Origin: a candidate division FCPU426 bacterium
Lineage (GTDB): Bacteria > Oederibacteriota > Muellerivitia > Muellerivitales > Muellerivitaceae
Direction: 5' to 3'
Length of the DNA stretch: 64,000 nt
NCBI GenBank assembly: GCA_963771075.1
Contig: CAVYSE010000011.1
Span: 352,001-416,000 of the forward strand
The notes beneath the pieces are model-generated. The model searched no databases. It was not told where the DNA came from and saw only the letters and a program-made list of their open reading frames with translations. The translations under genes and the position numbers were made by a program. Shown one piece after another: positions 55,219 through 64,000 of this stretch (position 1 is the first letter of the stretch; the number at the start of each line of letters is the position of its first letter).

Positions 55219-58200
55219 ATGCCAGTGACTGAACCTAAAACCCCGCCCACCTCTCCCTTGGCTTTAAACAAGCTGGACTGGCCCGAGGCGGAACAATCCC
55301 TCACCGCCCTCAAGGCCATGAAGCCCCGTACGCTGCTTCAGGGTGTGCCGGGTTCGGCCAAACCCTTCCTCATTTCCTGGCTTTACCAGCGTTTAAAAGA
55401 AGAACAACCTTGGTTGATTCTCGCTCCCACCCGGGATGAGGCCTTGGGGTTGCAGGATGATTTGCTGAGCTGGATGCCCGATGTGCCCGTTTTGTTGTGC
55501 CCTTCCTGGGAAATCATGCCCCAGGACGTGGAGACCCCCGATCCTGAATTGATCGGGGAACGACAAAGGGTTTTTTACCAGCTTTTGCAGGGTGGGCCCT
55601 GCGTCATTATCGCCACATTACAAGGCGCCCTTCAGCAGACCCTTCCCGCATCCGAATGGCTGGATCAGGTAATGGTCCTGCGCAGGGATCAGGAGGTCCC
55701 CCTTGATTTAAAGCAAAAACTGGTGGCTTTGGGATACGAATCGGTCACCCAAGTAGTCGAATTGGGACAGTTCGCCATGCGTGGAGGAATCTTGGACCTA
55801 GCCTCCCCGGGTTCGCCTTCCGGGCCAGTGCGTCTGGAGTTTTTCGGCGAGACCCTAATCTCGGTGCGGCCCCTGAATATCCTCAACCAGAGATCGGGTG
55901 GCGACCTTTCGGAAGTTTATGTCTTTCCAGCCCACGAGGTGGTGGTGAAAGCGGAGACGAGCCAGAACCTGAAGGCGGCCCTAAGGGAAAAGGTGAAGGA
56001 AGAATCCCGCTGGGCGTCCTCGGCGCTGGAGCTTTTCACCCAAACTCGTACCTTTCCCGGCTGGGAATGGCAGGCGGTGGGAGCCCTACCGGATCGACAA
56101 TGCCTTTTGGATTACCTTCCCGAAAAAAGCCGACTATTACTCTTAGAACCCCTGGCCCTGGAAAGAAAATTTGAGGAACTGGCGGACAAACTCAAAGCCT
56201 GTGATCGACAGGCCGCCGAGGAGAAATCGGATCTTTTTCCCGCCTCGAACCTTTTTGGCGATCTTCAGTATATTCAAAAGGCGCTCGCGGACGGCCGAGC
56301 CTTCGCCATCGGGCAAATTCTCCAGGACCTCATGGGGGAGTCTCCCGATTTTGATTTCCCAATCCAGTCCCGAAGTCTGAACCCCTATTACGGCAAATTC
56401 GGTTCTTTTATCAATGATTTAAAAAAATGGCTGGACGACAAGGAAAGGGTGATTTTGTGGTGCCATAACCGGGGCGAGAGGGAAAGGCTGATCGAGCTTT
56501 TACGCGAAGAAAAGATCGACCCAAAGGAGACCCCTTCCCTGACCCTGGCCCTGGGTGAGGTGGAACAGGGATTCGCGTTGGAAGGGATCGGTCTCAAGGT
56601 CCTACCCGACCATGACCTGTTCCGCCGCTACCGGGGCCGACGGCACCGCCGCATTCGAACCGTTTCCGGGGGCAAGGCCCTCTCTTCCCTTAATGAGCTA
56701 TCCCTGGGGGATTGGGCGGTCCACCTGGACTGCGGCATCTGCCTCTATCGGGGGCTAACGCCCCTTACCATTGACGAGGTGACCCGCGACTATATCCAAC
56801 TGGAGTTCGCGGACAACGAGAAAATCTACCTTCCCACTGACCAGATCGGGCTCATCCAGCGATATATCGGAAGCGAGGGTTCGCCGGTCCTCTCGAAATT
56901 GGGGGGCGAGCAGTGGAGCCGGACCAAGAATAAAATCAAAAAAGAGATTGAGGCGGTGGCCCGGGAACTGATGGCGCTCTATTCCACCCGCCAGGCCTTG
57001 CGCAAGAAGCCCTTTTCCATCGACACGCCCTGGCAATACGAGTTCGAAGACGCCTTCCTCTATACACTCACACCCGGCCAGCACCAGGCCATTCAGGATG
57101 TTAAAAAGGACATGGAATCGGACCGGGTCATGGACCGATTGGTTTGCGGTGATGTGGGTTACGGCAAGACCGAGGTGGCCATGCGGGCCGCCTTCAAGGC
57201 GGTGCAGGACAAACGCCAGGTCGCCGTCTTGGTGCCCACGACCATACTGGCCCAGCAGCACTTCAACACTTTCAAGGACCGCATGGCGGACTATCCGATC
57301 AAGATCGCGCTCCTCTCCCGTTTCCGCTCTCCCAAGGAAATCCACGAGACCCTCAACCAGGCGCGCGAAGGCGAAATCGACGTCCTCATCGGTACCCACC
57401 GTTTGATCATGAAAGACGTGAAACTGCCCAACCTGGGCCTTTTGGTGATTGACGAAGAGCATCGATTCGGCGTGGCGCAAAAAGAAAAGATGAAGGCCCT
57501 CAAGAAAGACGTGGATGTCCTGACGCTCACGGCAACCCCCATTCCACGCACCCTGCACATGTCCCTTTCCGGCATCCGGGAGATCTCCGTGATCGACACC
57601 CCGCCCCGCAACCGCATGTCGGTCCTGAGCCAGGTGGCTCCCATGGACGAAAAGCTTTTGGGTGAGGCGATCCGGCGGGAAATCAACCGCGAGGGCCAGG
57701 TTTTCTACGTTCACAACCACGTGAAGGATATCGAGCGCATCGCCGACCGACTGCACCAGGTGGTGCCCGAGGCGAAATTGGCGGTAGCCCACGGCCAGCT
57801 TAATGAACATGAGCTGGAATCCATCATGATGGACTTCATCGACCGGGAATACGACGTACTGGTCTGTACCTCCATCATCGAGTCGGGGCTGGACATGCCC
57901 AATGTCAATACGCTTATCGTAGAGCGGGCGGACCATATGGGATTGTCCCAGCTTTACCAGTTGAAGGGCCGGGTCGGCCGCACCGACCGGCAAGCTTACG
58001 CTTACTTTTTCTATCCCCGGCATATGACCCTGAAGGAACTGGCGCAGAAACGGTTGGAGGTCCTCCAGGAATTTTCCTCCCTCGGTTCGGGCCTTCACAT
58101 CGCCATGAAGGACATGGAGATCCGGGGGGCGGGGAACGTGCTCGGCACCCAACAGCACGGCAACATGGACGCCATCGGTTTCGAGCTTTACAGCCGCATG

Positions 58201-58698
58201 CTCAGCCAGGAAGTGGCGCACTTGAAGGGCGAGGCCTTCAGCGAGGACTTCACACCCCAGCTTTCCCTGGGCGTGACGGCTTATTTCCCAAAAGAATATA
58301 TTCCGGACGAGGGACTGAAGATCGAATTTTACCGGAGATTGGCGGAAGCAGGCGACGATTTGGCGGGGGTGGTGGAGGAGTTGAAGGACCGTTTTGGCCC
58401 CCCTCCTCCCGAGGCCCAGATGTTATTGACCGTGGCCTCTTTCCGTCCGCTCACGAAAAACCTGGGCGTCCAAAGGCTGGAGGCCCAAGGCGGCTGGGTC
58501 AGCCTGCAGTGGCATCCAAGCCATTCGCCTGATCCGAAGCGGGTGGAAAAATGGTTCAAGCAGTACCCCCCCTCCCGAATCCGATTCTCCCCGCATGATC
58601 CTAATATGGTTTCCTTTCGCGTGGCGAAGGGGGATGAATCCCAGGAACAACGTCTAGCGGCGGTAGAACGGCTTCTAAAAGACCTACAAAAGGGGTAG
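55219..58698 (+). CDS. mfd: Transcription-repair coupling factor
   Basis: UvrB-homology region, RID, CGDVGYGKTEVA, DEEHRFG, QLYQLKGRVGR and TRCF domain. Confidence 0.98.
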   Translation: MPVTEPKTPPTSPLALNKLDWPEAEQSLTALKAMKPRTLLQGVPGSAKPFLISWLYQRLKEEQPWLILAPTRDEALGLQDDLLSWMPDVPVLLCPSWEIMPQDVETPDPELIGERQRVFYQLLQGGPCVIIATLQGALQQTLPASEWLDQVMVLRRDQEVPLDLKQKLVALGYESVTQVVELGQFAMRGGILDLASPGSPSGPVRLEFFGETLISVRPLNILNQRSGGDLSEVYVFPAHEVVVKAETSQNLKAALREKVKEESRWASSALELFTQTRTFPGWEWQAVGALPDRQCLLDYLPEKSRLLLLEPLALERKFEELADKLKACDRQAAEEKSDLFPASNLFGDLQYIQKALADGRAFAIGQILQDLMGESPDFDFPIQSRSLNPYYGKFGSFINDLKKWLDDKERVILWCHNRGERERLIELLREEKIDPKETPSLTLALGEVEQGFALEGIGLKVLPDHDLFRRYRGRRHRRIRTVSGGKALSSLNELSLGDWAVHLDCGICLYRGLTPLTIDEVTRDYIQLEFADNEKIYLPTDQIGLIQRYIGSEGSPVLSKLGGEQWSRTKNKIKKEIEAVARELMALYSTRQALRKKPFSIDTPWQYEFEDAFLYTLTPGQHQAIQDVKKDMESDRVMDRLVCGDVGYGKTEVAMRAAFKAVQDKRQVAVLVPTTILAQQHFNTFKDRMADYPIKIALLSRFRSPKEIHETLNQAREGEIDVLIGTHRLIMKDVKLPNLGLLVIDEEHRFGVAQKEKMKALKKDVDVLTLTATPIPRTLHMSLSGIREISVIDTPPRNRMSVLSQVAPMDEKLLGEAIRREINREGQVFYVHNHVKDIERIADRLHQVVPEAKLAVAHGQLNEHELESIMMDFIDREYDVLVCTSIIESGLDMPNVNTLIVERADHMGLSQLYQLKGRVGRTDRQAYAYFFYPRHMTLKELAQKRLEVLQEFSSLGSGLHIAMKDMEIRGAGNVLGTQQHGNMDAIGFELYSRMLSQEVAHLKGEAFSEDFTPQLSLGVTAYFPKEYIPDEGLKIEFYRRLAEAGDDLAGVVEELKDRFGPPPPEAQMLLTVASFRPLTKNLGVQRLEAQGGWVSLQWHPSHSPDPKRVEKWFKQYPPSRIRFSPHDPNMVSFRVAKGDESQEQRLAAVERLLKDLQKG

Positions 58699-58833
58699 TT
58701 TTCATTCCTGTAACCTCCACCTGTGTGATTTTTCACCTATTTTGACTTTTTGTTGTAATGTAAAGGCTCCTTTCGGGCCCTTAAAAGCCTGTTCGGATCA
58801 ATATAAAACAAACGAAGGTTGAGGTTTCAAGCA

Positions 58834-59034
58834 ATGGTTCAAGGTACTGTGAAGTGGTTCAAGAACGAGAAGGGTTTTGGTTTCATTTCCCAAGACGGTG
58901 GCGAAGACGTATTTGTTCACCATTCGTCCATCCAAGGCGAGGGTTACAAGTCGCTGAACGAAGGGGACCGCGTGGAGTTTGAAGTGACCCGCGGGGACAA
59001 GGGCCTGAAAGCTGAGAACGTCGTTAAGATCTAA
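58834..59034 (+). CDS. cspA: Cold-shock protein
   Basis: GTVKWF, KGFGFI and DVFVH RNP motifs. Confidence 0.96.
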
Positions 59035-59057
59035 TCAAGATCTTTCAGGATTTTTTT

Positions 59058-59095
59058 AAAAGCCCTGTAGTGGTTAACCGCTACAGGGCTTTTTT
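59058..59095 (+). terminator. Intrinsic terminator
   Basis: aaaagccctgtagtgg/ccgctacagggctttt. Confidence 0.85.
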
Positions 59096-59136
59096 ATTAG
59101 AGGCATCAAAAATTTATCTTAAGAAGAAAGGCTGCC

Positions 59137-59403
59137 ATGCAAATCAGTGAAAAAGACCTGGGGAAAATAGTCCGCCTACCCGTCCGCCCCGAATGGGGCT
59201 TCGGCATCATCAGCAAAGTCGAGAACCGTTTCGCTTTCATCCTCTTTCAGACAGCCGAGGATAAAACGCCAAAGAAATATTATCTGGCCGAAAATCCATT
59301 GCAGCTTGCGCCCGACCAGAACCAGCCTGATCTCACAAAACGCGCCCGCGTGAAGAACAAAAAGATCAAGGTCAAGGCTGCGGCCCCCAAAGCTGCCGAA
59401 TAA
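59137..59403 (+). CDS. Small SH3-like hypothetical protein (DUF3553-like)
   Basis: GKIVRLPVRPEWGFG motif; basic tail. Confidence 0.6.
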   Translation: MQISEKDLGKIVRLPVRPEWGFGIISKVENRFAFILFQTAEDKTPKKYYLAENPLQLAPDQNQPDLTKRARVKNKKIKVKAAAPKAAE

Positions 59404-59609
59404 AGTGAGTTGATGATTTCTCCCTCTATCGTGATTGGGAGAGGGTTTATGGATCTGCTTTGCCAGGCGAATAATGTCTAACCTTTTTGGGACTACGGTT
59501 CGGTGGTGAAGGATTGGTATTTGCCCCGGCCCCGCGCTATTGCGGGACCCATCCCTATTTGTTACGATACGCAGTCTTTTTTCCAGTAAAGCCGATACAA
59601 GGAGTCTCC

Positions 59610-60377
59610 ATGGTTTCGCGCCCGACCCGATTCTGTCTAATCCTTTGCGCTGCCGCCCTCTTTTTTACCGGCTGGTCCTGCGGAAAGCTCGGAAATAAAA
59701 ACGCCCTCTCAGACGATCAGGTCGTCGCCACGGTGGGTGCCAAGAAGATAACCTTTGGCGACTGGATGAGGCAAATGGACCTTTTGCGGGTGTTCTCGCC
59801 CCAACCCGTGGACCCTAACAATTCCGAGGCGGTGAAGGCCGTGCTGGACAGCCTGATCGACCAACAAGTGGTGTTGGAAGCGGCCAAGGCGGCCAATTAC
59901 AGCGATCCCAAGTTCGACGAAATTTCCAAGAACAAGCTCATCGAGGCGGGGAACCAGATCAAGGATATCAAGGATCGCCTGGTCCAGGACATGGAAACGG
60001 TGAATCGCCTGGAAAAAACATACAAGGAATCCTACCTGCATATGCTCTTGGCCCAATCCTATGCCACGAGCCGGGCCTCGCTGGTGCCAGTCAGCGACTT
60101 GGAGATGAATGAACGATACGCTAAATATGTCAAGCAAGCGGAAGGTGTCGGCCAGAAACCACATTCTTTTAGCGAGGTAAAAGAACAGGTGAAGATGAGG
60201 TGCCAAGCGGACAAACTGATGAGCCAGATCGAGTCGACCCAAAAGGTCGTCCGGGACGAAGACGCGATCCAAAAATACCTAACCAATCTTTCCACCTCCA
60301 GTGCCTTGCTTCAGGATCAAACGGCCCTGCCGCAACCCTCTTCTGCGGTAACGGCGTCTAAACCGGGCAGGGAATAG
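59610..60377 (+). CDS. SurA N-terminal-domain lipoprotein
   Basis: Lipobox-like GWSC; VVATVG..KIT; VLDSLIDQQVV; AAGGAG SD. Confidence 0.7.
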   Translation: MVSRPTRFCLILCAAALFFTGWSCGKLGNKNALSDDQVVATVGAKKITFGDWMRQMDLLRVFSPQPVDPNNSEAVKAVLDSLIDQQVVLEAAKAANYSDPKFDEISKNKLIEAGNQIKDIKDRLVQDMETVNRLEKTYKESYLHMLLAQSYATSRASLVPVSDLEMNERYAKYVKQAEGVGQKPHSFSEVKEQVKMRCQADKLMSQIESTQKVVRDEDAIQKYLTNLSTSSALLQDQTALPQPSSAVTASKPGRE

Positions 60378-60424
60378 TCTCGAAGGCCCGTTTTCGCGTG
60401 CCTCTGATCACGGATACAAAGAAG

Positions 60425-61411
60425 ATGGGGAAGTGGTTGCGTTGCGCACAGGGAGCCGGGGGGATCTTTTTTCTGCTGGCTGGGTGCCAGAAGGAACCCC
60501 TGGTGGATTTGACCCCAGACCAGGCGATTCCAGCGAAAACGCTTGTGACGGTCAATGGCGAGCCCATTTCCCTGGAAACCTTTGACAATGAATTCCGCCT
60601 CATGGAAATCCATTACAGCGCCGTGACCGAGGGCGAGATGAGGCCCGTCAAGCGGCGCCTATTTGAACAGGTGATCAACCGCAGACTGTTGCTTCAGGAG
60701 GCCCGGCGGGTAGGCCTCAAGATGACCCAGAAAGACCTTGATGACGCCTTTCAAAAAGCCCTCCGGGAGGTTCCCGACGATTACCGGACCGTTTTGAAGA
60801 CCCAGGGGGTCAGTGAGGAAGCCTGGAAGAAAAAGGTGCTCCAGGAGAAATTGGCCCAGAAAATCGTGGATCAGGAAGTGAATTCGAAGGTGCAGGTGAC
60901 GGATCCCGAGGTCGAGGAGTATTACTGGTCCCATCTCTCCGAATATTGGGTCCCGGCTGCGGTGTGGGCCCATCATTTGGTGGTGAGAAAAAGGACCGAC
61001 TTGGACAAGGCCCTGTTAAGCTTGAAGCGCGGGGAGGATTTCGCCAAGGTGGCGGCCACCTTCTCCGAGGGCGTGGAAAAGGCCCAGGGAGGCGATTGGG
61101 GTTGGATGCAGACGGACCGGCTTCCCCCGTCGTTCCTGGCCAGCCTTTCGGGGTTGGGACCGGGTGAGGTTTCCAAGCCCTTGCGGGACGAGTTCGGCTA
61201 CCATTTATTCCAGCGGATCGATTGGAGGCCCCGGCGCATGAGCACCCTGGCCGAGGCGGCTCCCCGAATCCGTGATTTTCTTTTGAAGGAAGAGCAAGAC
61301 GTGAGGTTCGACCAATGGATGGCCGGGCTCAAGAAAAACGCAGTCATTAAAGTGAACCAAGACCTGGCCCCCATCGTCGGGGTCACCCTGGAGGGATTGA
61401 AAGATGAATAA
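60425..61411 (+). CDS. PpiC/parvulin-type peptidyl-prolyl isomerase lipoprotein (SurA/PrsA family)
   Basis: LLAGC; VTVNGEPI; GEDFAKVAATFS, GGDWGW, GEVSKP..FGYH; start uncertain. Confidence 0.88.
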   Translation: MGKWLRCAQGAGGIFFLLAGCQKEPLVDLTPDQAIPAKTLVTVNGEPISLETFDNEFRLMEIHYSAVTEGEMRPVKRRLFEQVINRRLLLQEARRVGLKMTQKDLDDAFQKALREVPDDYRTVLKTQGVSEEAWKKKVLQEKLAQKIVDQEVNSKVQVTDPEVEEYYWSHLSEYWVPAAVWAHHLVVRKRTDLDKALLSLKRGEDFAKVAATFSEGVEKAQGGDWGWMQTDRLPPSFLASLSGLGPGEVSKPLRDEFGYHLFQRIDWRPRRMSTLAEAAPRIRDFLLKEEQDVRFDQWMAGLKKNAVIKVNQDLAPIVGVTLEGLKDE

Positions 61412-63212
61412 ATGGATCATGGCGGGATTGTTCGCGGCGGGACTCACCGGAATTATCCCGGTTTCCGCCAAGGCGGAAACGGTGGACGAGATCGCGCTGG
61501 TGGTGGACCAGGAATCCATGACGCGGGGGGAAATCACCGAATCCATCGAGGCTTATTTCGCCGCCCGGAATGAAAAGAGCCCCTCCCCCGGGTCCCGCGA
61601 GTACCTGGAGGCCAAGAAACAGGTAGAGGACAATTTCATCCAAGAGGTTGTCCTGGCCGAGGAGGCGGACCGTGAAAAGATTGAGGTTTCCGATTCCGAC
61701 GTGGACGGGCAGGTGAACCAGGAGATCGAGGGAATGAAGCGTAATTTTCCAACGGACGAAGATTTCCAAGAGGGGCTGAAGCGGGAAGGAATCACCCTGG
61801 ATGATCTGAAGCAGGATACCCGCGACCGGATGACCCGGCGCATCAAGGCCGGCCGAGTTCTTCACACCAAACAGGCCGAATTGCCCTCGACCGCCGTGGT
61901 CACGGACGAGCAGGTGGCCGATTATTACCAAAAGCACCCGAAGGACTATGAACAAGCCAAGTTTTCCATCATTCTTTTCAACGCGGACGCCAAAACTTCC
62001 GCCGAGAAAAGGGCCTCGGCCGAGAAACAGGCCCAGGCCGTTTTGGCGGAATTGAAAAAAGGCGGGGATTTCGCCGCTGCCGCCAGAAAATATTCCGAAG
62101 ACGCGGGCACCCGGGATAACGGCGGTGAAGTGGGAACCGTCTACCGGTCCGACCTGGACCCCGACCTGGCCAAGGGTATTTTCGCCATGACCGTCCACAG
62201 CCTGGGATTGGTGCATGGAGCCGAGGGCTTTTACGTGGTCAAACTGGAATTCAAAGGGACCGCCGAATACAGTTCGGTGGCTTCCAGTATCAAGACCCAT
62301 CTTGAGCAAACGGGGCGGTCTGACGCCCTTCAACAGTGGATCGACCAGCTGAAGGCCAATGCCTACATCATGGAAGACGGGAAAGTGGTGGTGTTCAAGG
62401 CGAAGCCCGCTTCCACTGTTTCCGCGCCGTTAACCACCGCTGCCTCGAACGTCCCGGCAGGTTCCAGTTCACCCGCCACCGCCGCTTCGGAGGCCGCGAC
62501 CGATGAGGACTCGGACCTGCCCCCCATGGTGGTTTATCCCACCCTGCCGGATACGGACAGCTGGACCCTGACTGCGAAGTTCAACGGAATCAATTACAAC
62601 ACCCAGGATCTGAGCGATTATTACGGCTCATCGTCGAACGCCAACCAGAACTTTCCATTCGGCTTCGGGTTGAATTTTGGCGCCGACCTGGCGCTGGACC
62701 CGACCATTCAGGTCGGTGTGGAAGCCGAATTCCTGCGCAAGACCGTTGAAACGGTCCTGAATGCCAACAATTCGGGTGACACCGAACTTTGGAACAGCGC
62801 GGTGCTGGGTCCCGCCCTTCACGCCAAGTTGTTGATTCCCCTGGACGAAGGAACGAATTTCGACCTTTCCCTTTCCGGGGGATATTATTTCTTGGCCGGT
62901 GCGAGCGTGTCGGTTTCCGGGCCCGTTAGCGAGAACATGAACGCCTCGGCCTCAAGCTTTGGGGCGGTCGCCGCCGCGGATTTCGAGTTTTTCGTCGACA
63001 GCTCCAAAAACACCTCGCTGGATTTGGGCCTAGCCTACCGCTTCCTCAAATTCAGCCCCTTAAATACCAGCCTGACTTATTCCTCCAACAACAACGCCAC
63101 CCCCCTGGCAAACTCGCCGCTCCAGAACGCCGATGGAAGCAATGCCGCCATCGACTATTCGGGAATCGAAGTGGGGGTCGGCCTGCGTTTCTACCTGGGA
63201 AAGGGTGAATAG
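61404..63212 (+). CDS. surA: SurA-family chaperone/PPIase fused to a C-terminal outer-membrane beta-barrel
   Basis: VDEIALVVD, GGDFAAAARKYSED..GGEVG, WIDQLKANAYI; Ser/Ala/Thr/Pro linker; amphipathic beta-strands ending IDYSGIEVGVGLRFYL. Confidence 0.8.
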   Translation: MNKWIMAGLFAAGLTGIIPVSAKAETVDEIALVVDQESMTRGEITESIEAYFAARNEKSPSPGSREYLEAKKQVEDNFIQEVVLAEEADREKIEVSDSDVDGQVNQEIEGMKRNFPTDEDFQEGLKREGITLDDLKQDTRDRMTRRIKAGRVLHTKQAELPSTAVVTDEQVADYYQKHPKDYEQAKFSIILFNADAKTSAEKRASAEKQAQAVLAELKKGGDFAAAARKYSEDAGTRDNGGEVGTVYRSDLDPDLAKGIFAMTVHSLGLVHGAEGFYVVKLEFKGTAEYSSVASSIKTHLEQTGRSDALQQWIDQLKANAYIMEDGKVVVFKAKPASTVSAPLTTAASNVPAGSSSPATAASEAATDEDSDLPPMVVYPTLPDTDSWTLTAKFNGINYNTQDLSDYYGSSSNANQNFPFGFGLNFGADLALDPTIQVGVEAEFLRKTVETVLNANNSGDTELWNSAVLGPALHAKLLIPLDEGTNFDLSLSGGYYFLAGASVSVSGPVSENMNASASSFGAVAAADFEFFVDSSKNTSLDLGLAYRFLKFSPLNTSLTYSSNNNATPLANSPLQNADGSNAAIDYSGIEVGVGLRFYLGKGE

Positions 63213-63233
63213 GCCTTTACCAGCAGGCTGGCC

Positions 63234-63497
63234 ATGCGAGTGGATCTGTTTTTGAAGCTCATGGGAATCACCAAAACCCGCATGGCCGCAAAGCGGTTTT
63301 GTGATAATGGGCGGGTGACATACGGGCCGCATGCGCTCAAACCCTCTTTTGAACTTCAATGCGGTGAGGAACTGTTGATTCGTCTACCTATTCGGGAAAT
63401 AAGATTAAAGGTCGTCGCGTTACCTAGGGAGAAAAGCGTCGCTAAAGCGAACCGGCCCAAGTTTGTCGAGATCTTATCCTCTGTTGAAATGAAGTAA
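63234..63497 (+). CDS. S4-domain RNA-binding protein (YabO/RqcP/Hsp15-like)
   Basis: MRVDLFLK..ITKTRMAAK..C..GRV...KPS. Confidence 0.85.
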   Translation: MRVDLFLKLMGITKTRMAAKRFCDNGRVTYGPHALKPSFELQCGEELLIRLPIREIRLKVVALPREKSVAKANRPKFVEILSSVEMK

Positions 63498-63582
63498 CTT
63501 TCCCTTTTGCGCCTCTTTTTTTCACGATCTGGTAGATACCACCTTTGGTAACTCAAAAATGAAATACTCTTCATTTTCTAAT

Positions 63583-63597
63583 TGATAATGGTTATCA
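63583..63597. promoter_or_regulatory. Fur-family box
   Basis: TGATAAT-G-GTTATCA, one mismatch from the 7-1-7 Fur consensus. Confidence 0.7.
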
Positions 63598-63650
63598 TTT
63601 AAATTATTCTCAAGACGCAATCGAATCTATTGAAAGCTATGAGGGAGCGT

Positions 63651-64000
63651 ATGTCGGCGGATATTAAGATTCTCAAAGCGATTTCCGTCAAAAAGAAATC
63701 CAATTTTGGGTCGCGCCTTGCGGCTTTTCTCATGGTCATGGGCCCGGGCTTGATCGTCATGCAGGCCGACACCGAGGCGGGAAGCATCACCACCGCGGCG
63801 GTGGCCGGCGCCCAATACAGCTTCCACCTGGTCGGGTTGCTTGTGATCCTCGCGTTACCTCTCTATGTGGTCCAGGAAATGACCGCGCGCCTGGGTTCGA
63901 TCACGGGAAAGGGCCACGCCTTTCTCATACGCCAAAAATACGGAATGGGTTGGGCCTGGGTTTCCCTTTCAGTGCTGTTCCTTTGCAACATCGCGGCCCT
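63651..64000 (+). CDS. NRAMP-family divalent metal transporter, 3' truncated; not in the ORF track
   Basis: MGPGLIVMQADTEAGSITT..AGAQY, QEMTARLG..TGKGH...IR..YG; GAGGGAG SD. Confidence 0.85.
   Translation, partial: MSADIKILKAISVKKKSNFGSRLAAFLMVMGPGLIVMQADTEAGSITTAAVAGAQYSFHLVGLLVILALPLYVVQEMTARLGSITGKGHAFLIRQKYGMGWAWVSLSVLFLCNIAA

Follow-up and report, generated by a model that had tools for sequence, protein, structure and literature searches.

The present analysis concerns a stretch of 64,000 nucleotides from a candidate division FCPU426 bacterium (the whole of which is called here the window) and, in particular, an open reading frame (ORF) of 602 amino acids (aa) located on its plus strand at 61404..63212. 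The frame is uninterrupted, without internal stops, and encodes a SurA-type chaperone core followed, in the same polypeptide, by a low-complexity linker and a predicted outer-membrane beta-barrel. The gene starts within the last codons of the upstream gene, with an overlap of 8 nt (the TAA of the latter is at 61409-61411). The elements that make up the gene are the following.

61390..61394, plus strand: Shine-Dalgarno-like GGAGG, 9 nt before the ATG (61404) of the 602-aa gene
61404..61475, plus strand: signal peptide (residues 1-24), predicted by eye to be cleaved after SAKA; the predicted local distance difference test score (pLDDT) is below 50 at residues 1-27
61476..61898, plus strand: SurA N-terminal core domain, residues 25-165 (Pfam, conservation, Foldseek match to SurA)
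61899..62261, plus strand: single parvulin (PpiC-type) domain, residues 166-286 (Pfam Rotamase_3)
61968-61982 and 62226-62240, plus strand: sites of the replaced parvulin histidines, residues 188-192 and 275-279
62262..62408, plus strand: SurA C-terminal helix and short strands, residues 287-335, completing the core; barrel-less orthologues end here
62409..62534, plus strand: disordered linker rich in Pro, Ala, Ser and Thr, residues 336-377 (model and composition)
62535..63197, plus strand: predicted 8-stranded, OmpA-like outer-membrane beta-barrel, residues 378-598 (models, Foldseek, VIA-align)
63162..63197, plus strand: last strand GIEVGVGLRFYL (residues 587-598), beta-signal-like; the tail GKGE and the stop come after it (63198-63212)

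The N-terminus, MNKWIMAGLFAAGLTGIIPVSAKA/ET, has by eye the features of a Sec signal peptide, namely a hydrophobic core and an AxA cleavage site. When the interior of the ORF is read, neither a second signal peptide nor a well-placed Shine-Dalgarno site is found in it; the linker contains a single methionine, behind which there is neither a signal peptide nor a well-spaced Shine-Dalgarno sequence.

The SurA-type half, the linker and the predicted barrel

The N-terminal half is recognized by Pfam through SurA_N_3 (PF13624) at residues 10-145 (41.1 bits, cut-off 27.2), SurA_N (PF09312) at residues 27-143 (32.8 bits, cut-off 30.8) and Rotamase_3 (PF13616) at residues 180-281 (E 7.2e-18, above the curated cut-off). 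The best conserved part of the SurA N-domain is its N-terminal strand, VDEIALVVDQ, which is nearly invariant. In a full-length AlphaFold (AF2) model, built on 44 aligned orthologues, this half matches SurA in Foldseek (9hg5_F, E 4e-13); compared with the SurA fragment 2pv3_A, the model gives a target-normalized TM-score (TMt) of 0.46, with a predicted SurA core fold in which the C-helix packs on the N-domain. The C-helix region is modelled as a helix at 289-318 and strands at 322-329. The mean pLDDT of the full-length model is 79.9 and its predicted TM-score (pTM) is 0.42, a low value which fits two domains without a fixed mutual orientation.

Two further likenesses may be recorded. Residues 1-234 weakly resemble the NCBIfam family TDE1658 (41 bits, cut-off 340; E 9.3e-11), a treponemal family named 'MOSP complex formation periplasmic protein'. 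By language-model features, the nearest cluster in the ESM Atlas is a 551-aa SurA_N/Rotamase family with 86 members, commonest in Acidobacteriota; its length exceeds the 354-365 aa of the barrel-less orthologues, so it might carry a C-terminal extension of its own.

After the SurA core, residues 337-385 are mostly Ala, Ser, Thr and Pro, with a pLDDT below 50 at residues 337-375. Across the 44 orthologues the linker measures 38-67 residues and the mean share of Pro, Ala, Ser, Thr and Gly is 0.65; a region of such variable length and such composition has the signature of a spacer and not of a domain.

The C-terminal domain is predicted to fold as an 8-stranded outer-membrane barrel. In the full-length model the strands lie at residues 387-397, 419-430, 435-452, 460-479, 484-505, 510-530, 537-559 and 587-598, and the C-terminal half matches the transmembrane domain of OmpA (1bxw, E 8.7e-8, TMt 0.72). 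A model of the barrel only (residues 376-602), based on an alignment of 33 sequences of the same module that includes distant paralogues, reaches a mean pLDDT of 90.5 and a pTM of 0.84; with this model the matches listed by Foldseek are all outer-membrane barrel proteins, and the best global fits are 8-stranded (OmpA 9fzd_A, E 2.7e-8, TMt 0.73; OmpW; NspA). VIA-align, a comparison independent of Foldseek and run against 48,161 representative chains, places at the top a designed (de novo) transmembrane barrel (Z 17.9), then OprF (16.6), OmpA (16.5), NspA (16.4), PagL (15.3) and OmpW (15.0). The alternation of a hydrophobic and a polar face is clear in seven of the eight strands. Moreover, 11 of the 33 members of the module match the Pfam family OMP_b-brl (PF13505) at E<=0.01, the best of them at 2.9e-9.

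In outer-membrane proteins the periplasmic turns are as a rule short and the external loops long. The long and most variable loops of the modelled barrel are those at 398-418 and 560-586, and short turns (431-434, 480-483, 531-536) lie on the side of the N- and C-terminal ends; given a periplasmic N-terminus, the modelled arrangement would be the canonical one. Because the strands are eight, both ends of the barrel should lie on the same side of the membrane, and the even number of strands together with the short turns on the terminal side would place the linker and the SurA domain in the periplasm.

The original prediction for this locus had given the same coordinates and had put SurA-N, the parvulin and the SurA C-helix in residues ~1-330, followed by a low-complexity linker and about eight strands of alternating hydrophobicity with no second signal peptide or ribosome-binding site before them, and had suggested that modelling and Foldseek would find an OmpA/OmpW-like barrel in the last part. 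All this agrees with the Pfam, Foldseek and composition data, with the reading of the ORF interior and with the OmpA/OmpW/NspA-like fold of the barrel-only model described above.

Conservation and origin of the fusion

The barrel stands in a single open frame of 593-654 aa in 25 of the 31 genomes of the family, the window's own included; of the remaining six, three carry copies truncated at the end of a contig and three give no match to the barrel. In relatives, matches to the full-length protein span it from end to end at 39-79% identity and contain no stops. A large protein collection contains about 50 homologues of full length (580-632 aa), drawn from several sources, and the source name of one of them is 'parvulin-like peptidyl-prolyl isomerase/opacity protein-like surface antigen'. 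The public records of the relatives are uncultured metagenome-assembled genomes labelled inconsistently (as proteobacterium, Elusimicrobia, Candidatus Firestonebacteria or plain 'bacterium'), and the window's genome is also a metagenome-derived assembly, of 4.39 Mb in 28 contigs.

Contigs from four public sequencing runs of four studies (soil, bog and unspecified metagenomes), one of which may be the sample of origin, span the SurA-linker-barrel junction with no indel or joint (for example with matches at 62290-62719, 62343-63064, 62407-62886 and 62308-62544). Among the public runs holding the sequence, no RNA run is listed. When the gene is compared with three congeners, the ratio of non-synonymous to synonymous substitution rates (dN/dS) comes to 0.07-0.11 in the SurA part, 0.11-0.15 in the barrel and 0.20-0.41 in the linker, and these ratios are rough because dS is above 1.2; in each of the three comparisons the linker exceeds both flanking domains. 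Both the SurA half and the barrel half are under purifying selection. The SurA-barrel fusion is real. The view of a true fusion, put forward in the original prediction together with a check of relatives for separate genes or an assembly error, is borne out by the single frame across the family, the junction contigs of the four studies and the dN/dS values.

The gene belongs to a cluster, whose other elements in the window are listed here.

55219..58698, plus strand: mfd (transcription-repair coupling factor), which is conserved and marks the SurA cluster on its upstream side
59487..60377, plus strand: probable lipoprotein with SurA_N only, upstream of the fusion gene (Pfam)
60398..61411, plus strand: SurA_N and parvulin protein with lipobox LLAGC, directly upstream of the fusion, both parvulin histidines kept
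63234..63497, plus strand: small S4-domain protein, downstream of the fusion; found again beside the SurA-type gene in two of five related loci (L032, L029)

All five related loci compared keep the order mfd, SurA_N-only lipoprotein, SurA_N and parvulin protein, secreted SurA-like protein. The last member of the same cluster is a secreted SurA-like orthologue without barrel, which stops a few residues past the SurA core, in two of the family's other genera (G019, 357 aa; G010, 354 aa) and likewise in two other families (G030, 357 aa; G036, 365 aa). Outside the family, matches to the query reach only residues 1 to ~335; the barrel module is detected at E<=1e-5 in just 5 of 68 genomes of other families, weakly, and in the three cases inspected it makes up a small outer-membrane protein by itself (264-281 aa). 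When a tree is built from the SurA domain only, the 45 barrel-bearing rows all group in a single clade (SH-aLRT 98), with the barrel-less members of the family outside it, their exact place being unsure because their branches are long. The simplest history is a single fusion of the barrel module onto an ordinary soluble SurA-like gene, with the fusion as the derived state. The domain content, the uninterrupted frame, the conservation and the origin from a barrel-less orthologue are direct observations.

The barrel module, the upstream genes and the genome

The barrel is not confined to this gene. The window's genome holds two further copies of the module, both in proteins with tetratricopeptide repeats (TPR) in the place of the SurA domain.

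L026:3235-4359, minus strand: TPR-barrel paralogue G000:C3 (375 aa), with signal peptide, TPR, linker and barrel
L027:2501-3622, plus strand: TPR-barrel paralogue G000:C6 (374 aa), with the same parts

This architecture consists of a signal peptide, two or three TPR repeats, a Pro/Thr/Ala linker and the same 8-stranded barrel, for a total of 336-518 aa, and further relatives were collected from the family genomes (L033-L043), 14 sequences being aligned. An ending on Phe or Tyr is the classical C-terminus of outer-membrane proteins, and 10 of the 14 aligned TPR paralogues end directly on one of these residues (..ARFF, ..VRFF, ..LRFY). In one TPR-barrel member the repeats show a weak YfiO/BamD-like match.

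An exhaustive hidden Markov model (HMM) search with the barrel module over 1.84 billion representatives brought up no more than 620 proteins at E<=1e-3; 126 of them reach <=1e-10 and 45 reach <=1e-30. Among the 150 matches listed, 54 hand-chosen representatives with an extra region were scanned with Pfam: 38 have N-terminal TPR, 3 have SurA_N and Rotamase, 1 has the barrel first and a C-terminal TPR, 4 match barrel families only and 8 match nothing. At least 8 of these 54 relatives pass the cut-off of PF13505 (31.4-54.7 bits). Two more SurA-type representatives among the matches listed (P0047, P0048) were already known from the homologue set. Searches of the barrel by word index recovered 4 fragments at near lengths and, with a profile at longer lengths, 10 SurA fusions, and missed the divergent paralogues. 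With 38 against 3 of the scanned proteins, the TPR-barrels appear as the common form of the module and the SurA-barrel as a rare offshoot. In the barrel tree the TPR barrels are one clade (SH-aLRT 100) and the SurA barrels an unresolved grade; the tree gives no direction of transfer of the module between the two.

Two unusual arrangements of the module were also encountered. In P0134 (355 aa) the order is reversed, with the barrel at 33-241 and C-terminal TPR repeats at 279-342. In the 567-aa protein at L045:510-2210 (G003:C46; representative P0140) the module lies in the middle of the chain (229-391), flanked by barrel-like segments that match OMP_b-brl and PagL; this protein may consist of several small barrels in series or form a single larger one.

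Both genes upstream of the fusion are SurA-like, as the original prediction had proposed in describing them as lipoproteins. In the middle gene (60398-61411) the lipobox is LLAGC in its own family; in G030 and G036 the corresponding protein has an uncleaved N-terminal transmembrane (TM) helix and no cysteine (loci compared: L030:5062-6000, L031:4500-5438). Since these orthologues carry such a helix, the middle gene product may work at the inner membrane. In the first gene (59487..60377) the lipobox is atypical in the window (GWSC) and canonical in relatives (LAAC, LSGC), and the true start is probably the internal MVSRPTRF.... Between mfd and the cluster (58819-59403) the window contains a gene for a cold-shock protein and a small ORF that weakly resembles DUF3553 (19.4 bits, under the cut-off of 20.3); in G019 (L028) the first SurA-like gene directly follows mfd. 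A scan of 58600-63700 for promoters and terminators found sites no more numerous than in shuffled sequences, so it carries no information on operon boundaries.

As regards the rest of the genome, it encodes BamA (786 aa; L051:700-3057), a second Omp85 protein, Skp and a BamD-like TPR lipoprotein, from which the organism can be taken as a diderm with a beta-barrel assembly machinery (BAM). Besides the three proteins with SurA_N in the window it encodes only one more, a PpiD-like protein of 488 aa (G000:C7) with an uncleaved N-terminal TM helix, which makes four in all. The genome yielded no SurA-like protein that is freely soluble; its sole SurA of periplasmic type thus appears to be the tethered form.

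A proposed tethered chaperone, its rivals and known systems

How unfolded outer-membrane proteins cross the periplasm without ATP is debated, with SurA seen either as a shuttle or as one of several chaperones stationed at Sec and BAM, or within a trans-envelope supercomplex. With regard to this problem, the 602-aa protein is probably a periplasmic SurA-type chaperone that is tethered to the outer membrane near BAM. According to this model, Sec would export the protein and BAM would insert its C-terminal barrel into the outer membrane; the SurA domain would then hang in the periplasm on a leash of ~40-50 residues (38-67 across the orthologues), a length that would keep it in the outer periplasm near the POTRA domains of BAM. 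There it would capture unfolded outer-membrane proteins and pass them to BAM, the clients coming from the inner-membrane side, plausibly from the PpiD-like protein and the two upstream SurA-like lipoproteins. In a cryo-EM study, E. coli SurA is described as docking on POTRA-1 of BamA via its first mature residues and as staying there through the early folding of the client (PMC11366764). The strand of the fusion that corresponds to this docking segment is the nearly invariant one of the SurA N-domain.

The original prediction had already proposed an outer-membrane-tethered chaperone on a flexible arm, working in a relay with the two upstream lipoproteins. The predicted barrel, the linker and the periplasmic side assigned to SurA favour the tether, and the interpretation as a whole is supported in part; the relay is plausible, its basis being the conserved gene order and the predicted anchors. 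The loss of the parvulin histidines, the derived state of the fusion, the reuse of the barrel module (mostly with TPR) and the separate PpiD-like protein had escaped that prediction.

Several observations weigh against the model of a tethered chaperone. On the side of the SurA half, the two conserved parvulin histidines, which we take to belong to the parvulin active site, are both replaced in the fusion (I189 and Y277, by alignment to the P1 and P2 domains of SurA): SIILF aligns with SHILI, and GFYVV with GFHIL and GWHLI. Y277 is invariant among the 44 aligned sequences, and the barrel-less orthologues also lack the two histidines; both residues are kept in the upstream gene 60398-61411 and in the PpiD-like protein. 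Judging from these residues, the parvulin of the fusion is not a standard peptidyl-prolyl isomerase, and because of the double replacement the protein would act as a chaperone and not as an isomerase. Furthermore, the 602-aa protein scores 49.6 bits with the NCBIfam SurA equivalog NF008038 (cut-off 394) and reaches the cut-off of no NCBIfam SurA or PrsA equivalog, and the named NCBIfam families nearest to it all score far under their cut-offs; it is SurA-like by fold and domains, and is not an equivalog of SurA of the E. coli type. On the side of the barrel, the sequence supports the fold less strongly than the models do: PF13505 gives 24.2 bits with this protein, below its cut-off of 28.7, and a search of the PDB sequences with the barrel profile found no outer-membrane protein, the only matches being HSP90 N-domains at E ~0.003, which were treated as spurious. 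The last strand is conserved (..GLRFYL), yet 4-6 residues follow it, and the C-terminus is not aromatic, unlike that of the TPR paralogues. As for the anchor, a LolCE-like permease is encoded at G000:C6:45964-47202 (362.1 bits, just below the cut-off of 362.45) and a lipobox is present in the BamD-like protein; anchoring by lipid was thus within reach as an alternative to the barrel. Finally, the localisation, the topology and the client binding of the fusion are predicted properties.

A separate idea was that the barrel anchor replaces lipoprotein sorting because the Lol system is missing. LolA was not found in the genome with PF03548 or TIGR00547 (best E 0.005); the idea is weakened by the same LolCE-like permease and BamD-like lipobox.

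Other explanations of the architecture give the barrel, or the SurA domain, a different role. The barrel could be the working part of the protein, as an OmpA/OmpW-type structural element or small channel, with SurA as its chaperone in cis or as a periplasmic scaffold. OmpA-type proteins commonly pair a barrel with a periplasmic domain, and the barrel is conserved here as strongly as the SurA half; in addition, in an engineered SurA-OmpX chimera the attached barrel fills the client site of SurA (PMC11366764). Such a role would nevertheless leave the general function of SurA vacant in a genome where no other SurA of periplasmic type was found, the orthologues that lack the barrel are, within the same cluster, SurA-like proteins of the ordinary secreted kind, and 38 of 54 relatives combine the same barrel with TPR, a finding more in keeping with an anchor than with the client of a private chaperone. 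On balance we consider this explanation unlikely. Even less probable is an autotransporter-like barrel that displays the SurA/parvulin domain on the surface as an exposed foldase or adhesin. The order passenger, linker, C-terminal barrel is indeed that of type Va autotransporters, and Foldseek lists the autotransporter EstA (3kvn_X, E 4.9e-6), but the global fit to EstA is poor (TM-score 0.34 normalized by query, TMq, and 0.16 TMt, rmsd 16.5) against the 0.73 of OmpA. Autotransporters of this type have a 12-stranded barrel with a pore helix; only 8 strands are modelled here, and the linker, disordered and rich in Pro, Ala, Ser and Thr, offers no helix to fill the pore. No Pfam autotransporter family is matched at E<=1 in the 602-aa protein, and the lumen of an 8-stranded barrel is too narrow for a passenger.

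That the C-terminal domain is instead a soluble, ligand-binding periplasmic barrel, similar to avidin, lipocalin or YceI, has very little probability. Among the matches of VIA-align there are indeed 8-stranded barrels of soluble type (Z 8-12.7; avidins, designed barrels, YceI), but the membrane barrels are clearly higher (Z 14.8-17.9), with longer alignments; moreover, the outward-facing strand positions are hydrophobic, the Pfam OMP_b-brl matches extend across the module family, and the paralogues end in the outer-membrane-protein signature ..RFF/..RFY. The possibility that two adjacent genes were merged by mis-assembly or by a sequencing frameshift would find a reason in the metagenomic origin of the assembly and its 28 contigs, but can be practically dismissed in view of the same single frame in 25 of 31 family genomes and in ~50 database proteins of several sources, of the junction bridged without indels by contigs of four studies, and of the fact that a separate barrel gene would have neither signal peptide nor ribosome-binding site.

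Returning to the tethered chaperone, a broader version of the model can be put forward as a tentative one, rather doubtful at present: the self-inserting 8-stranded barrel might be a portable protein anchor for the outer membrane, joined by a leash to periplasmic factors (many times to TPR, once to SurA), and the SurA stationed there might take clients from SurA-like or PpiD-like partners anchored in the inner membrane. If so, the delivery of outer-membrane proteins would need no diffusing chaperone, only two tethered stations spanning the periplasm. That TPR and SurA share one barrel module points to a means of fixing periplasmic proteins to the outer membrane without lipid. The presumed tether has been kept under purifying selection across ~15 genera, and any soluble copy seems to have been removed. 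Should the localisation be confirmed, SurA function would prove compatible with permanent residence at the outer membrane, and the fusion would be a ready-made tool for capturing BAM-SurA-client states.

A description of a natural SurA-barrel fusion was not found in the open-access literature searched, and the protein can be compared with known systems part by part. E. coli SurA (1m5y; bound to BAM in 9hg5 and 8pz1) gives the best match to the N-terminal half in structure and to the parvulin in sequence; it shares with the fusion the SurA_N core, the parvulin, the C-helix that closes the core and the export by Sec, and differs in having two parvulins instead of one, while the fusion lacks the histidine pair and has in addition the linker and the barrel. 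The same number of domains and the same fold are found in Campylobacter PEB4/Cj1289 (3rfw, 3rgc), Leptospira LIC12922 (3nrk) and PrsA (6vj6, 5tvl), with Foldseek E-values from 6e-11 to 6e-8; PEB4/Cj1289, LIC12922 and the PrsA of Gram-positive bacteria, however, are soluble or lipid-anchored in the cytoplasmic membrane and have no beta-barrel. PpiD is likewise a membrane-tethered chaperone with SurA_N and parvulin, of the same superfamily, which is located at SecYEG; its tether is an N-terminal inner-membrane helix, whereas the fusion has a cleavable signal peptide and a predicted tether to the opposite membrane.

As to the C-terminal half, the 8-stranded fold predicted here is that of OmpA/OprF, NspA, OmpW and PagL, members of the OMP_b-brl clan (Z 15-16.6), although the identity to solved barrels is only 9-16%. 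In OmpA/OprF the barrel comes first and the periplasmic domain after it, an order that is reversed in the 602-aa protein. The TPR-linker-barrel paralogues have the same barrel module (30-38% identity), a Pro/Thr/Ala linker and the same order of parts; they differ by the 2-3 TPR in place of SurA, by barrels that end on Phe or Tyr and by being much commoner.

The closest parallel to the whole architecture is artificial. To observe the hand-over of the client by cryo-EM, SurA had to be tethered artificially to BAM or to a client barrel, and the engineered SurA-OmpX and SurA-EspP chimeras (8qpv, 8qp5) trap intermediates of BAM (PMC11366764, also for what follows). As in the natural protein, in SurA-OmpX a SurA is followed by an outer-membrane barrel in one chain, and OmpX is 8-stranded. 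The chimeras reach BAM, and the barrel can begin to fold while SurA remains on POTRA-1; SurA-OmpX, made without a linker, cannot complete folding, and its authors consider that an added linker is needed (PMC11366764). The natural fusion differs from this linker-less construct precisely in its linker of 38-67 residues: evolution appears to have made a SurA that tethers itself, and to have included the linker that the engineered SurA-OmpX lacks.

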